Assembly: GCA_951406725.2 (NCBI GenBank)
Contig: OX597818.1
Coordinates: 140,492,001 to 140,556,000 of the forward strand
Direction: 5' to 3'
Length of the DNA: 64,000 nt
DNA from: Octopus vulgaris
Taxonomy: Eukaryota
Shown here: positions 8,085-63,807 of the stretch, piece by piece
Layout: each line of letters begins with the position of its first letter
How positions within the stretch are numbered: the first letter of the stretch is position 1
Notes under the pieces: model-generated
What the model was told of the DNA's origin: nothing
The model's input: only the letters and a program-made list of their open reading frames with translations
Database searches by the model: none
Made by a program: the position numbers and the translations under genes

Positions 8085-8085
<1 letters not shown>
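4228..8085 (+). mobile_element. Probable non-autonomous Helitron. The 3' end is well supported, the 5' boundary is tentative; it would contain the RTE fragment.
   Basis: 3' end ...ctgagcatcgccgggaagcattgCTAG|t (about 8059-8086) matches the hairpin+CTAG end at 16741 and 56281; candidate 5' end aTCtctatatgtataaagc near 4228. Confidence 0.45.
4895..5290 (-). mobile_element. RTE-clade LINE 3' end (C-terminal region with C2H2-like finger, short 3' UTR, A-rich tail)
   Basis: ORF 4961-5308: KLRYREVCKRDL...WEETAADRSAWR...CSNCTKDCHSRIGLFSHSRRC, a typical RTE C-terminus. Confidence 0.85.
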
Positions 8086-8127
<42 letters not shown>

Positions 8128-8128
<1 letters not shown>

Positions 8129-9987
8129 TTTATTTTAAGCAGCAGAAAATTCAACAAAATCTGTTACTCTGAGTTTCTCGTTGCCGTTCATCAGACAGTT
8201 TTTGCTAGAATGGAACATATATATTAATTCAATCTATACTCTTACAAACGCTACACCTTTAAAAAGAAATGGACTTGTTTGATTGGCCCTTTAGAAAAAA
8301 CGGTCAATCCTCGAGCGATAAACAAAAAGGTCAAAAATATATGTATATATATATAAAAACTTATAAAAATTATAAAATCCGAGGAAAATACCGAGGAAAA
8401 ACCTGTTGCCGTTAATGAAGACAGTACAAATTAATGCATAGAAATTAAACCTGTTATAAATACTGCAATACATATTTATATTAAAATCCACATATATATA
8501 TCAACATACACAAAAGGATGCGCGTAAACGCCATACATACACATACAGACGTATGAATATGAATCTAAATTATACACATAAAAGCATGTGTACATATATT
8601 CACGCAAACCGTCTCGCACGCAAGCTAAAATTCATCTATGTAGCAATTCTCATATACTGAGCAAGGAGGGGGAACGAAAGAAAGGGAAAGAGAGAAAAAG
8701 GAACGGAGGAGGGGTGGGGGAAAAAGCTTGTAGCTATGTTATTTGGCATCTATAGAGGCCTGTATACATACACAAGTTTGAATTGATACATATACATACC
8801 GTCGTGTATATGTGTGCTTAAGCACAAGCATACTTTCACTCACACATACACAGATACGCATGCTTACAAATACATATGCTTTGCTATACACAAACTTATA
8901 TAAACATTCTAAATTTGACAACATTGCTTTTTTTATAAAAAAACATTGCTTTTAAAAAATGGGTGCATTAATAAAAATATATACGAAAGACCTATAAAAT
9001 AAAATATAACATCCTATTTTGGGTCATTTATAAATAATCAAGGTAATATAAATAATCAAGGTAATCTTATGCAATACAATAACATGAAAACAAAGTTTGT
9101 AGGTTTTTCCTAATATATATGTAGAAACAATAAGACTTTGCTATAGGTCCGTTGTAGCTCTCAAGAGTCAAAATCAAAATCAAAAAATCAAAATACAAAA
9201 TATATACTCTATCCATATGGTATATTTATATTCGACATTTTAAATTTAGCCTTGTGCCTACATAAGTTCATTAATTCACTTCTTTGATTCAAAGAATTAT
9301 TGTCTTTGAATAATATATGCATTTTTTCTAATAAGCAAAGCCTGCACTTGAAATTATATTTGTAAGCTCCATGCCTGTATGGTGCCGCCCTGTCCAGAAT
9401 GCTCCATGTCACGTTGAAAGGTGGGCTTCCTTTTCTTTTAGTTCCCAGACATATTTTGCTAGGCTGGTTTTCTTTCTATTCTCTGGGTATTTAAAAGAAT
9501 TCTTATGAGAATAAAATCTTGTTTTAAATGAATTTTCTGAAGCCCCTGTGTATGTCTTGTATTCCGATGAGCCTTCCACTTGCACCTTGGCTCTATAAAC
9601 TACTCCTTTCACTAGACATTTCCCTTCTAACGGACAGGAGCTTTCGTTTTTGAAATTACATTTCTTAATGGGCTCGGCACCATGTCTAATCTCAATTAGC
9701 TTCCTATTATGTTGGCTAATGTAAGAGGCGAAATTTCTGCAACAAGAATAGCTAACCTTCAGGGTTCTTCTATTAAATATTCTGTAGAATTTATGACCCT
9801 GCCTAAAATGCTTAGAGACTAATCTCAAAAATTCCTTACCTATATTAGTCTTTACGGCCAAATTGAAAGCCGGGTTGAACCACAAAACTTTCCTAGTCCT
9901 AGTTCTTCGTGCAGCATTATTATTAGCATTAAGCTGGTTGAACTGGATCTTCTCCGAGAATCCACTATTCTTTAATGCGCTATCGTA
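8128..9987 (-). mobile_element. Penelope-like element, 5'-truncated copy (left palindrome arm) with frameshifted GIY-YIG ORF and about 1.1 kb 3' UTR/pLTR
   Basis: Reverse complement of 10016-11876; ORFs 9409-10140 and 9209-9412 are split by a 1-bp deletion (GGG at 9423-9425 vs CCCC at 10578-10581). Confidence 0.93.
8156..8203 (-). ncRNA. Minimal type I hammerhead ribozyme motif (mirror copy)
   Basis: Exact reverse complement of 11801-11848. Confidence 0.85.
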
Positions 9988-10015
9988 ATAAGGTGCAGCA
10001 TTATACACATATATA

Positions 10016-10795
10016 TACGATAGCGCATTAAAGAATAGTGGATTCTCGGAGAAGATCCAGTTCAACCAGCTTAATGCTAATAATAATGCTGCACGAAGAA
10101 CTAGGACTAGGAAAGTTTTGTGGTTCAACCCGGCTTTCAATTTGGCCGTAAAGACTAATATAGGTAAGGAATTTTTGAGATTAGTCTCTAAGCATTTTAG
10201 GCAGGGTCATAAATTCTACAGAATATTTAATAGAAGAACCCTGAAGGTTAGCTATTCTTGTTGCAGAAATTTCGCCTCTTACATTAGCCAACATAATAGG
10301 AAGCTAATTGAGATTAGACATGGTGCCGAGCCCATTAAGAAATGTAATTGCAAAAACGAAAGCTCCTGTCCGTTAGAAGGGAAATGTCTAGTGAAAGGAG
10401 TAGTTTATAGAGCCAAGGTGCAAGTGGAAGGCTCATCGGAATACAAGACATACACAGGGGCTTCAGAAAATTCATTTAAAACAAGATTTTATTCTCATAA
10501 GAATTCTTTTAAATACCCAGAGAATAGAAAGAAAACCAGCCTAGCAAAATATGTCTGGGAACTAAAAGAAAAGGAAGCCCCACCTTTCAACGTGACATGG
10601 AGCATTCTGGACAGGGCGGCACCATACAGGCATGGAGCTTACAAATATAATTTCAAGTGCAGGCTTTGCTTATTAGAAAAAATGCATATATTATTCAAAG
10701 ACAATAATTCTTTGAATCAAAGAAGTGAATTAATGAACTTATGTAGGCACAAGGCTAAATTTAAAATGTCGAATATAAATATACCATATGGATAG
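10016..10795 (+). pseudogene. C-terminal part of PLE polyprotein: RT thumb end, Cys-rich linker and GIY-YIG endonuclease; no RT catalytic core and no native start
   Basis: YDSALKNSGF...WFNPAF...CNCKNESSCPLEGKCL...GVVYRA...YTGASENSFKTRFYSH...CRLCLLEK...LNQRSE...CRH; the Cys pattern resembles Naiad-type PLEs (clade call needs phylogeny). Confidence 0.9.
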
Positions 10796-11800
10796 AGTAT
10801 ATATTTTGTATTTTGATTTTTTGATTTTGATTTTGACTCTTGAGAGCTACAACGGACCTATAGCAAAGTCTTATTGTTTCTACATATATATTAGGAAAAA
10901 CCTACAAACTTTGTTTTCATGTTATTGTATTGCATAAGATTACCTTGATTATTTATATTACCTTGATTATTTATAAATGACCCAAAATAGGATGTTATAT
11001 TTTATTTTATAGGTCTTTCGTATATATTTTTATTAATGCACCCATTTTTTAAAAGCAATGTTTTTTTATAAAAAAAGCAATGTTGTCAAATTTAGAATGT
11101 TTATATAAGTTTGTGTATAGCAAAGCATATGTATTTGTAAGCATGCGTATCTGTGTATGTGTGAGTGAAAGTATGCTTGTGCTTAAGCACACATATACAC
11201 GACGGTATGTATATGTATCAATTCAAACTTGTGTATGTATACAGGCCTCTATAGATGCCAAATAACATAGCTACAAGTTTTTTCCCCACCCCTCCTCCGT
11301 TCCTTTTTCTCTCTTTCCCTTTCTTTCGTTCCCCCTCCTTGCTCAGTATATGAGAATTGCTACATAGATGAATTTTAGCTTGCGTGCGAGACGGTTTGCG
11401 TGAATATATGTACACATGCTTTTATGTGTATAATTTAGATTCATATTCATACGTCTGTATGTGTATGTATGGCGTTTACGCGCATCCTTTTGTGTATGTT
11501 GATATATATATGTGGATTTTAATATAAATATGTATTGCAGTATTTATAACAGGTTTAATTTCTATGCATTAATTTGTACTGTCTTCATTAACGGCAACAG
11601 GTTTTTTCCTCGGTATTTTCCTCGGATTTTATAATTTTTATAAGTTTTTATATATATATACATATATTTTTGACCTTTTTGTTTATCGCTCGAAGATTGA
11701 CCGTTTTTTCTAAAGGGCCAATCAAACAAGTCCATTTCTTTTTAAAGGTGTAGCGTTTGTAAGAGTATAGATTGAATTAATATATATGTTCCATTCTAGC

Positions 11801-11848
11801 AAAAACTGTCTGATGAACGGCAACGAGAAACTCAGAGTAACAGATTTT
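11801..11848 (+). ncRNA. Minimal type I hammerhead ribozyme motif
   Basis: aaaa-CTGT [CTGATGA 11810-11816] a-cg-GCAA-cg-a [GAAA] C-TC-A-GA-[GTA 11837-11839] ACAG-a-tttt: core boxes, stem I CTGT/ACAG, 2-bp stem II with GNRA loop, near-palindromic stem III ACTC-A-GAGT. Confidence 0.85.
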
Positions 11849-11945
11849 GTTGAATTTTCTGCTGCTTAAAATAAAGCATATTACTCTACCACTGGTATTT
11901 GAGTACTCTTTTTTCCACCTTGTTTCACATTTATGTGTTTACTCC

Positions 11946-11948
<3 letters not shown>

Positions 11949-12021
<73 letters not shown>

Positions 12022-12155
12022 TATACACATATACATATGTGTGTGTGCATGTAGATATATATATATATATATATATGTGTGTGTATGTGTGTGTGCGTGT
12101 GTACACACACACATAAATATATGTACAAACATATATATACATGTGTATATATATG

Positions 12156-61223: not shown

Positions 61224-61810
61224 CATTTGGTCGGCTTTTATACAATGTGCATTTCATTCTTATTATTCGATATTTCTAGCTTAAGTTAAATTTGTCTGGA
61301 GAAAGTGGAGAATGGTACCGACTTGATGTCTTTTTTTCCGATATGCTAGAATGTATGCGTAACCTGCCCTAACTGATAAAGTTAAAACAATCATTATTCT
61401 TTGATTACTGTAGTCTGCTGTTAAGAAATACGTACGCCATAATATTGAGAATGTACCGCTTGAACCTCAAATAACCTGAGGTTGGTTCAGTTCACTTAAT
61501 GTTAACCTAGCAGTTTATTTTTTCTCCAGGTGCTTCCTGACAAATGTATTTGATTGGATGCTTACCTTGATGTCGATTTAGATTTTGCGGATGGTGCTTC
61601 TAATGGAGGAGCCATCACATTTATTGCAGACATTTCATACAACACGTAGACACTCGAGCATATGTCGATATTGCTAACAGGGTAGCTGACCAGTGCGTAA
61701 ACGCTGTTGCTGTCCTCAGATCTTCAAGGGGATTTCCATGCAGCTGAACTCCCAAAAAGGAATAAAGATAGATTCCATTCTATATCATCCTTTATTCAAA
61801 ATTTAAGGCC

Positions 61811-62239
61811 CTCTTCTTCTCCAAATCTTTCTTCTTCTTCTTCTTCTTCTCCTCCTCCTCCTCCTCCTCCTTCTTCTTCTCCTCCTCCTCCTCCTCCTTC
61901 TTCTTCTTCTTCTCCTCCTCCTCCTCCTTCTTCTTCTTCTTCTCTTCCTCCCTCTCCTCCTCCTTCTCCTCATCCTTCTCCTCATCCTTCTCCTCATCCT
62001 CCTTCTTCTTCTTCTTCTTCTCTTCCTCCTTCTTCTTCTTCTTCTTCTTCTCCTCCTCCTCCTCCTTCTTCTTCTTCTTCTTCTTCTCTTCCTCCTTCTC
62101 CTCCTCCTCCTCCTCCTCCTTCTCCTTCCTTCTCCTCATCCTTCTCCTCATCCTCCTCCTCCTCCTCCTTCTTCTTCTTCTTCTTCTTCTTCTTCTTCTT
62201 CTTCTTCTTCTTCTTCTTCTTCTTCTTCTTCTTCTTCTT
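61811..62239. repeat. Polypyrimidine (TCT/CCT)n trinucleotide tract
   Basis: About 430 bp, almost purely C/T on the plus strand. Confidence 0.95.
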
Positions 62240-62299
62240 GCCGCTGGTATCTCATCATCATCGTCATCATCATCATCATTCTTAGAATATCTGGAAGAG

Positions 62300-62470
62300 T
62301 CGTCTGGTGACATTTCTTCCGGATCATTTCTTTCCGAAGTGAAATTCCGCCGAGGTCAATTTTGCTTTTCATTCCATCGGAACTGATAAAATGAAATTCC
62401 AGTGGAACATCAGGTTTCATGGTATCGACAAACTCTCTCTCCTTAAAAACTTCAGCCTTTCTACCTAAAT
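62300..62470 (+). mobile_element. Degenerate SINE family D
   Basis: gaaattccgccgaggtcaattttgcttttcattcc. Confidence 0.6.
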
Positions 62471-62479
62471 CAGTAACCA

Positions 62480-62561
62480 GCATCATCGTCATCGTCATCG
62501 CCAACGTCATCATCACCTTTATCATCATCATTATCCTCATCGTCGTCGTCAGCTTCATCGA

Positions 62562-62597
<36 letters not shown>

Positions 62598-62761
62598 TGG
62601 TAGTAGTAGTAGGAGGAGGAGGAGTAACTGTAGTAGTAAATGTAGTAGTAGTAACTGTAGTAGTAGTAACTGTAGTAGTAGTAACTGTAGTAGTAGTAGT
62701 AGTAGTTGTTGTAGTAGTAGTAGTAACTGTAGTAGTAGTAGTAGTAGTAGTAGTAGTAACT

Positions 62762-62803
<42 letters not shown>

Positions 62804-62806
62804 ACT

Positions 62807-62859
<53 letters not shown>

Positions 62860-62880
62860 TGTTGTTGCTGTTGTTGTTGC
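62480..62880. repeat. Compound (CAT/CGT)n-(CAG)n-(TAG)n-(TTG)n trinucleotide microsatellite
   Basis: Directly visible; explains ORFs 62148-62924. Confidence 0.95.
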
Positions 62881-63807
62881 ACCTGAACAAAAAGAATATA
62901 AATGAGTCGTCGAACTCTGATCAAAAGAAAGTCTATGATCTACACACGGCCCTCAAGCTCCAGAAGGTCTGACGGACGAACTTCTTTGAAAATAATAGAT
63001 AAAACGTTCGGAAATTGTCGCTTAGGAAAGGCATGACATAGAATAAATATCGATTACCGGTATTGGAAGATTTCAACAGGGAATCCTGGAACCATTTGCA
63101 TCAAACGTATACTTGACAGATATTTTAGTTTATCGATCTCTTAAGACGGATGAAGAAAGTTGATCACATCGGGATTTGAACTCACAATATAAAACGATAG
63201 AATCACATAGCGCTGAGTATATCTTTCCTGAACGCTATCGGTTTTGCTTATCCACCGTGCACCCAGGCCCTGCAAAATGATTATTAGTTAGCTGTCTAAG
63301 ATAACAAACATCAGTCAGGAGAGTAAAACTTTATACCAAGCAGAAAAACCGATAATGTTATACTATCTATCTTCCAAGTTTAACAGATATGTAGTTATTT
63401 AAGAGTACTGTGATAGTGTAATGCACATATATAGACATCTTGCGGAGGCTGTACGTAGATTTCAGGGTGAGAACATTTCAAGGTTAAGTGAAAATCAGAG
63501 AAACAAGAAACGAGTTTCTAAAAAGAATTGTTACAGATCGAGTTTCAACTACCCGAGTGAGTTAAACATCTAAGCCTCCTACACATGTTACTTACTTTGT
63601 AACATATGTAAAATATATGTATATGAGGGTACACATATTAATACATAATAAAAGTAATGTATATTTAAGGAGAGGTGATTGACAATAAGTTTAATCGCAT
63701 AATGATGTGTGAATAAATGCATACATACATGTATCTATATACGTGTGTGCGTGTGCGTATGTACGTGTGTCTATAAACACATCTTCGTATGCTTACATAT
63801 TTTCACG

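Follow-up and report, generated by a model that had tools for sequence, protein, structure and literature searches.

The window, meaning here the whole analysed stretch of 64,000 nucleotides of Octopus vulgaris DNA, holds a palindrome with arms that are 99.6% identical and differ at seven places, four being substitutions and three single-base indels in runs. This head-to-head duplication spans 3.76 kb and is inserted in (TA)n. Each arm reads outward through the last ~260 codons of an open reading frame (ORF), about 1.0 kb of untranslated region (UTR) and then a ribozyme, with the left arm carrying a one-base frameshift in a C run. The features are as follows.

8085..8122, no strand: (TA)n target tract, left flank
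8123-9987 and 10016-11881: arms of the palindrome, 1865 and 1866 nt with 7 differences, separated by a loop of 28 nt
8123..10002, minus strand: left arm, an inverted copy that lacks the tail and has 15 additional native bases (9988-10002) at its central end
8156..8203, minus strand: identical mirror hammerhead in the inverted arm
10003..10015, no strand: filler of 13 nt at the inversion junction, TA/CA-type
10016..11947, plus strand: right arm, by its motifs a 5'-truncated Penelope-like element (PLE) of the Hydra clade, comprising the ORF end, a ~1.0-kb 3' UTR/pLTR, the hammerhead and the tail
10016..10795, plus strand: C-terminal ORF remnant, ~260 of ~710 aa, with reverse transcriptase (RT) thumb, CxCx5C linker and GIY-YIG-type endonuclease
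11801..11848, plus strand: pLTR hammerhead of minimal type I, cleavage predicted after 11839 (GUA)
11806-11809 with 11840-11843: stem I, CTGT with ACAG
11810-11816: core box CTGATGA, followed by A 11817
11818-11825: stem II and loop, CG-GCAA-CG, 2 bp with a GCAA loop, followed by A 11826
11827-11830: core box GAAA
11830-11838: palindromic helix III, ACTC-A-GAGT
11837-11839: cleavage triplet GTA
11882..11947, plus strand: tail of 66 nt, at one end only
11883..11907, plus strand: bulged hairpin ACTC...GAGT-ACT, the short end lying just 5' of it; first of two copies in full-length relatives
11948..12030, no strand: (TA)n/(CA)n target tract, right flank

Every part of the hammerhead named in a sequence-only reading of this DNA is present, and the mirror copy claimed at 8156-8203 is, as its reverse complement, identical to 11801-11848. 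The CUGANGA and GAAA core, U16.1 and an H17 triplet are all there, as are the open stem I around the core and the short stem II that are features of the PLE pLTR type. Stem I has 4 bp plus four more beyond an A.A, and the 10.1/11.1 position adjoining the 2-bp stem II is likewise A.A. The core, the stems and the location in the PLE 3' repeat near its end, 42 and 108 nt from the two ends, support the earlier assignment to the minimal type I hammerheads of PLE pLTRs with palindromic helix III.

Detection relied on a descriptor consisting of the core boxes, a Watson-Crick stem I of 4 bp and a self-complementary helix III, with stem II not required. It gave three matches in the real window, compared with none in 5000 dinucleotide shuffles of the arm and 2/200 in shuffles of the window. 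The covariance-model scan that had been asked for used a model built on 40 of 67 distinct cores from relatives (10-15 nt between the boxes, helix III of 8-10 nt, window sequences excluded) and scored both copies at 41.8 bits (E 4.3e-11, such E-values being rough), although the two copies count as one event and not as two observations. A third motif scored 27.1 bits and all non-hammerhead matches in the window 13.1 bits or less. A search of the window with Rfam gave no match that reached the gathering threshold, and within 11450-11960 no hammerhead family came up even at E<=10; Rfam models therefore miss this form of the hammerhead. The motif is real, correctly identified and above chance.

The third motif, at 1932-1980 on the plus strand, is a second and unrelated minimal hammerhead with U.U at 10.1/11.1, a 4-bp stem II, a CUA triplet and a 6-nt palindromic helix III, situated in a 250-nt island between (TA)n tracts. 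It is probably the stump of another PLE family, and no Hydra-type hairpin was found downstream of it. Three related loci (L094, L097 and L032) carry several different hammerheads in a row, most of them followed by (TA)n, and represent PLE stumps stacked in a single microsatellite.

The ORF remnant (P0001) shows the features of a GIY-YIG-type endonuclease C-terminal to an RT (VVY...YTG, R, E and N), along with CxxC..E, N..E....CxH and a CxCx5C linker at residue 118, while the CCHH motif is absent and no CxxC lies between the GIY-YIG halves. All 30 of 30 matches among longer proteins are 472-784 aa long, with a best identity of 56%. RWK/RWR, DKT and YRDD occur in full-length relatives, RWK and DKT being found in the closest of these (P0002) and in most others; the RWK/DKT region is missing from the truncated window copy. 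As the copy lacks the RT catalytic core, it cannot be autonomous. Pfam gave no match for the window ORF and for one relative only an E-value of 0.078, and the best solved-structure match of the alignment was a retron RT (E 0.003). CxCx5C, CxxC, CxH, RWK, DKT, insertion into (TA)n and hammerheads are given as features of the Hydra clade in section 11 of PMC8557442, and the insertion into (TA)n is present at the window element. Judged by these motifs, the element is a 5'-truncated Hydra-clade PLE, a placement by motifs since the window lacks the RT core needed for a tree, and its family, as far as comparison by eye reaches, is different from the published ones.

Two other kinds of element were considered and rejected. 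A non-LTR retrozyme needs tandem non-coding units with same-sense hammerheads, whereas the window has one hammerhead per strand beside a PLE ORF; Naiad PLEs have an N-terminal endonuclease and no canonical hammerhead, neither of which fits the window element. No relative of the element was found in viral contigs. Nineteen related loci (L080-L098) come from prokaryote genome assemblies, mostly animal-associated or marine bins, and these Hydra-type PLEs are likely contamination from animal hosts, as Craig et al. note for similar prokaryote-assembly matches (PMC8557442).

Five AACGG/CCGTT words are scattered over the 3' UTR, at 10851, 11297, 11590, 11701 and 11816, one of them inside stem II. We take these words to resemble Myb-type sites, which could relate to a pLTR promoter. 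Elsewhere in the window, two pairs of dispersed repeats in opposite orientation (2902-3147/29507-29752 and 27684-27876/39227-39419), 80-85% alike, are probably short interspersed elements, and 61700-62950 is taken up by a long array of low complexity, spaced at 9-12 nt, that includes several open frames.

How unusual the hammerhead is can be judged against 25 published Hydra-clade families, given in 26 rows of File S2 of PMC8557442 and tallied here by hand, and against 98 related loci, of which 62 contain a hammerhead according to the descriptor (76 matches, 67 distinct cores). The loop of a single nucleotide in helix III had been called sterically implausible, but it is the norm of the clade: a 1-nt centre is found in 16/25 published families and a 9-nt helix III with a single central base in 38/67 relative cores, and the difficulty is resolved in a dimer. 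The 10.1/11.1 mismatch had likewise been singled out. That the position is unpaired is normal, as this applies to 15/25 published families (14 U.U and one U.C), to 36/67 relative cores, where the mismatch is nearly always U.U, and to 25/40 of the model cores. The relatives have U.U in 34 cores, G-C in 19, A-U in six and G.U in five, with U-A, A.C and A.A occurring once each. The G10.1-C11.1 pair of the 2014 consensus is missing from the window hammerhead and from 48/67 relatives, and with 15/25 published families unpaired at this position the pair does not define the Hydra clade. What does stand out is A.A on a stem II of 2 bp: purine-purine combinations occur at 10.1/11.1 in none of the 25 published families, where the shortest stem II in File S2 has 3 bp, and in one relative of 67 (L023), while a stem II of 2 bp or less is found in only 3/67 relative cores. 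A covariation check on the relatives found the stem II cells paired in 39/40, 40/40 and 38/39 cases even though the descriptor had not demanded stem II, the figures for the whole structure being partly circular as stems I and III are selected for by the descriptor.

The A.A is not peculiar to this copy. In family contigs from four runs, 11826 is A or G (G at 37%, at 19%, at 60% on one contig, and at 34% of depth) and 11844 is G in 60-65%, with A.G in place of A.A at 10.1/11.1 making up about a third of the family depth. A mutation specific to the window copy was rejected as the origin of the A.A, as A is the majority base at 11826 in three of the four runs, the alternative base is G and not one that would pair, and 11675-11898 is matched without a difference by a contig from another run. 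Among 40 of 192 listed rows of the family contigs, the only variants inside the motif are A>G at the unpaired positions 11826 and 11844, with none at core or paired stem positions. A.A/A.G on a 2-bp stem II thus characterises the family and does not reflect decay.

This trait leads to the question of whether the ribozyme works. In one alternative it is catalytically dead throughout the family, A.A/A.G on a 2-bp stem II being decay that was fixed in the master element and the motif being kept only by adjoining RT start sites. The rarity of the combination, which lies outside the published set, speaks for this, as does the report that U.U, not A.A, is the best-tolerated mismatch (PMC3088659), so that the ribozyme could be near-dead; moreover, cleavage is dispensable for in vitro insertion of a related element. 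However, the listed variants spare the core and the paired stems, and the depth of family contigs over the ribozyme exceeds that over the upstream UTR ~3-5 fold in both DNA runs, showing that more subfamilies align there. In addition, stem II often has two pairs in natural hammerheads, stems II of 1-2 bp are common in nature and a one-pair example is active (PMC3088659), and the A.A is found in L023 too. On balance, a dead family ribozyme is unlikely, at perhaps one chance in four. The hammerhead is a very small natural one, with 10 nt between the core boxes and A.A/A.G where pairing is usual, that is kept across a high-copy family, which makes this family a simple case for asking how short a stem II the core can do with. 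Judged by the listings, no paper describing an A.A variant at 10.1/11.1 was found in the literature searched, which excluded subscription papers, figures, Repbase and most of the PMC8557442 supplement, and the portion of the eLife mutagenesis paper PMC9901934 that was covered contains nothing on this position.

Folding predictions give the active fold of the monomer an ensemble probability of 2.5e-5. The predicted minimum-energy fold of the dimer has an intermolecular helix III and both stems II but no active stem I; the active dimer is predicted at -12.2 kcal/mol, only 2 kcal/mol below two folded monomers, versus -15.2 kcal/mol for this minimum-energy fold. In these models the palindromic helix III favours the dimer, in line with the earlier claim that a second same-sense copy is needed, and activity in the window family would likely be low. 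It had further been claimed that each strand has only one sense copy, which agrees with the descriptor and the model, neither of which finds a second usable same-sense hammerhead in the arm. A look-alike of the 5' half of the ribozyme at ~11577-11598 was rejected as a same-sense partner: it has neither CUGANGA nor GAAA, 10/1000 shuffles align equally well, the covariance model gives no match, and at 11598 the family majority, by depth, has another base in three of four runs.

From the pairing of each ribozyme with its perfect antisense it had been concluded that a fold-back transcript should sequester its own ribozyme. As thermodynamics this holds, as sense-antisense pairing is predicted at -82.6 kcal/mol for the 48-mer and -454 kcal/mol for the outer arms of 281 nt, and sequestration would follow for a read-through transcript. 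A transcript reading outward from the UTR, by contrast, would contain no antisense arm, and in it stems I and II are predicted to form with a probability of ~0.35-0.4, helix III being absent. As a function, the idea is not supported: the copy is a truncated dead end without RT core, and sequestration thus has no evident function. The observation that one hammerhead lies at each outer end is correct as well, yet it is the automatic result of a head-to-head duplication of the 3' end of the element, and inverted PLE copies with a hammerhead at either outer end have been published before.

A stronger form of the idea would be that the palindrome is a functional switch, with read-through fold-back RNA locking its own ribozyme or permitting cleavage only in trans. 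Pairing energies far above that of the ribozyme fold and the 99.6% identity of the arms would suit such a switch. Against it, PLE insertion commonly leaves this layout behind, the points of inversion differ in other copies of the family, and the RT core is missing from the window copy. In addition, a scan of the 147 longest of 492 complex open frames of at least 45 aa, which short exons would escape, yielded no host exon. We therefore regard a switch as very improbable. The same scan of open frames yielded one RT of another retroelement and two weak matches below the cut-off. A fragment of another RT lies at 1-770 on the minus strand (Pfam RVT_1, E 4.5e-15), probably belonging to a non-LTR element.

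The reading in which we place considerable confidence is that a 5'-truncated Hydra-clade PLE contributed the motif as its pLTR hammerhead, present twice through head-to-head duplication of the 3' end in (TA)n, and that the ribozyme is likely weak, dependent on a partner RNA or protein, and a mere passenger in the window copy. Inverted 5'-truncated copies and a tail at one end are described as standard PLE features (PMC8557442; PMC3846280), and hammerhead pairs on opposite strands were noted in 2014 (PMC4209133).

The inversion itself could in principle be an artefact of assembly or of a read folding back, the locus then having a single hammerhead. The arms are indeed near-perfect, three of their seven differences are single-base indels in runs, and none of the listed family contigs spans the inversion junction at the centre of the window palindrome. 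An artefact is nevertheless hard to credit and has little probability, as the outer flanks are unique and unlike each other, both ends correspond to genuine ends of the family, four differences between the arms are substitutions, and each arm holds native sequence that is missing from the other, namely the 15 central bases on the left and the tail on the right. The central extra bases of the left arm are identified by family contigs with loose ends at 10004 and 10016. Other copies of the family invert elsewhere, with contig joints at 10020/10116, 11802/11911 and 11803/11868, and a relative at locus L080 has a long inverted arm. At the latter two joints, contigs of two DNA runs switch strand at the 5' edge of the ribozyme, which indicates stump-sized palindromic copies of the family.

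A real inversion may also have arisen from two independent cDNAs, or from two separate insertions joined end to end, rather than from the fold-back of a single cDNA. Two cDNAs would fit the finding that neither arm simply duplicates the other, and also the behaviour of the protein of a related PLE, which is modelled as dimeric and both nicks and extends the two strands. But the arms stop within 15 nt of each other, a coincidence that independent truncations would have to achieve over ~1.9 kb, and they have private differences from the family majority in common. Two independent cDNAs thus appear rather improbable, at roughly one chance in five, and a fold-back of a single cDNA is preferred. The origin of the filler fits in here: a 17-mer made up of the filler and its neighbours has one further occurrence in the window, at 12010-12026, 63 nt into the right flank. 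This is no more than suggestive of copying from DNA of the target flank, the 13-mer filler alone occurring at eight places.

Both ends of the window insertion lie downstream of the cleavage site, at +42 and +108 nt, which implies that the RNA behind this insertion was uncleaved there. Family contigs run into (TA)n after 11881 in three runs (30 in X1, 2 in X3 and 40 in X19), and the distances from cut site to (TA)n in relatives are bimodal, with 18 cases at 29-59 nt and nine at 94-114 nt, values that bracket the 42 and 108 nt of the window. Two further cases at 9 nt represent an internal tract, giving 29/76 matches in total, and 47/76 have no (TA)n within 200 nt of the cut. The depth of family contigs is highest over 11846-11912 and many contigs diverge upstream of 11870, showing that the tail is the part most widely common to the subfamilies. 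In run X3, tentatively taken to be RNA, contigs over 11779-11950 are about a hundred times deeper across the tail than across the UTR, compared with ~5-10 times in the DNA runs; this is a hint of abundant tail-containing transcripts, though contigs cannot show RNA ends or levels.

Relatives carry a repeated bulged hairpin downstream of the ribozyme. Its form there is GCTC...GAGC-ACT, and GCTC-N8-19-GAGC-ACT or a compensated form is found downstream of the cut in 36/62 distinct segments, compared with 15/3100 shuffles and 1/65 upstream segments. The hairpin is present twice, 55-71 nt apart (16 cases), before a start codon that lies at about +140 to +190 from the cut in most 5' copies. Covariation was counted on 53 hairpins, these being the window hairpin and 52/56 others after one near-duplicate and three long or doubtful ones were dropped. 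For the inner pair, which the search had not specified, the 53 hairpins have C-G in 31 cases and U-A in 19, against a shuffle mean of 26.7 and with 0/2000 shuffles reaching the observed value, counts in which related families are not independent. The next pairs covary too, and a 2-nt bulge always starts with U. A looser pattern gave 50 complementary and five non-complementary outer pairs, some arms being mis-picked, and shows that the outer stem is mainly conserved in sequence. In the window hairpin the outer pair is changed on both sides (A-U for G-C) and the bulge has 3 nt; the only variant inside it, among 40 of 192 rows, sits in the loop.

The distance between hairpin and insertion end is nearly constant. 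Comparison of internal copies with copies joined to (TA)n places the start of the TA run 7, 6, 7 and 8 nt before the hairpin (L050, L070, L088 and L041), with 2-5 TA-type letters in common at these four junctions, and for L072/L084 at 8 nt as judged by eye. Comparison of the two arms in the window places it 6 nt before the hairpin, and a spacing of 6-8 nt was seen in 6/6 comparisons. Long ends lie 51-65 nt after the first hairpin (nine cases), the long end of the window being at 65 and thus probably just before a second hairpin that is itself not included in the window copy. It is likely that the repeated hairpin sets two RT start sites behind what is known as the PLE tail. Judged by the listings, no paper describing it was found in the literature searched, again with subscription papers, figures, Repbase and most of the PMC8557442 supplement outside the scope. 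For the question of PLE tails and inverted ends, it offers a well-delimited piece of RNA structure that covaries and keeps a set spacing from the insertion ends.

A general model for Hydra-clade PLEs can be drawn up from these findings, and we give it an even chance. In it, two hairpins (GCUC-Y...R-UN-GAGC-ACU) ~62 nt apart, between the cut site and the start codon, would be the landing sites of the RT-endonuclease, each setting a start 6-8 nt upstream at a TA-like patch that pairs with nicked (TA)n, so that the tail would be one hairpin period. Opposite-strand priming from both sites together with one fold-back would produce the palindrome, and the ribozyme would work with a purine-purine 10.1/11.1 on a 2-bp stem II. 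Under the reading favoured above, reverse transcription at this locus would have begun on RNA uncut at the ribozyme, when the nicked (TA)n DNA paired with the short TA-like patch before the conserved bulged hairpin. In an order read from this one insertion, the left flank would have primed the first cDNA at hairpin 1, and this cDNA would have run for ~1.88 kb, gained the 13-nt filler and folded back; a second, short cDNA primed at hairpin 2 from the right flank would have supplied the tail and annealed to the fold-back strand. If the template is uncut at the ribozyme, as the ends past the cut suggest, every insertion keeps the ribozyme. In an intact tandem element the ribozyme would likely cut slowly, either by pairing of two copies through the palindromic helix III or assisted by the protein that the element encodes, and the cut would fall ~140-190 nt upstream of the next start codon.

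Among the closest known systems are the Hydra-clade PLEs of Craig et al. 2021 (PMC8557442), described with a C-terminal endonuclease, CxCx5C, CxxC and CxH but no CCHH, a (TA)n target and a 3'-repeat hammerhead with a 1-nt-centred palindromic helix III. The coral family Hydra-2_aMil has stem I, helix III arms and triplet identical to the window, and Penelope-13_HM, through a 5'-truncated copy in inverted orientation, has hammerheads on both strands; the paper also describes tails confined to one end. By contrast, Hydra-1_Obim differs from the window family in protein and ribozyme when compared by eye. The window departs from the published Hydra families in having A.A or A.G at 10.1/11.1 instead of U.U or G-C, a stem II of 2 bp where the published minimum is 3, a tail of 66 nt where 30-40 bp are quoted for the clade, and a 3' UTR of ~1.0 kb up to the ribozyme compared with 62-366 nt for most first downstream matches in relatives. 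The repeated hairpin of the relatives has no mention in the text of PMC8557442 that was compared. The PLE hammerheads described in 2014 (PMC4209133) are similarly of type I with a short helix I, a palindromic helix III and a predicted dimer, and low in vitro activity and opposite-strand pairs were reported for them, while activity in the window is a prediction only. In their consensus, helix II is long, one more base follows position 9 and G10.1-C11.1 is a highly conserved pair; the window has a 2-bp helix II and no such pair.

A further parallel is the Poseidon element PAc of Anolis (Frangieh et al. 2024, PMC11167929), in which RT starts downstream of the ribozyme at two internal sites that define the tail, on an uncleaved RNA template and at AT-rich targets. 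Its ribozyme cuts only with protein, and cutting is not needed for insertion in vitro, results with which the uncleaved template deduced for the window agrees. The starts of PAc, however, lie at an AC-rich stem-loop inside the ORF and have no target homology, whereas the ends in the window and its relatives lie in the 5' UTR, each before one of two hairpins and with 2-5 nt of TA-type microhomology. The inverted-pLTR Penelope of Adineta vaga (Arkhipova et al. 2013, PMC3846280) shares with the window the head-to-head repeats, junction palindromes and an optional tail at one end. For that element the arrangement was explained by self-priming, possibly on an antisense template, while for the window a fold-back of the cDNA followed by a second priming event is proposed.
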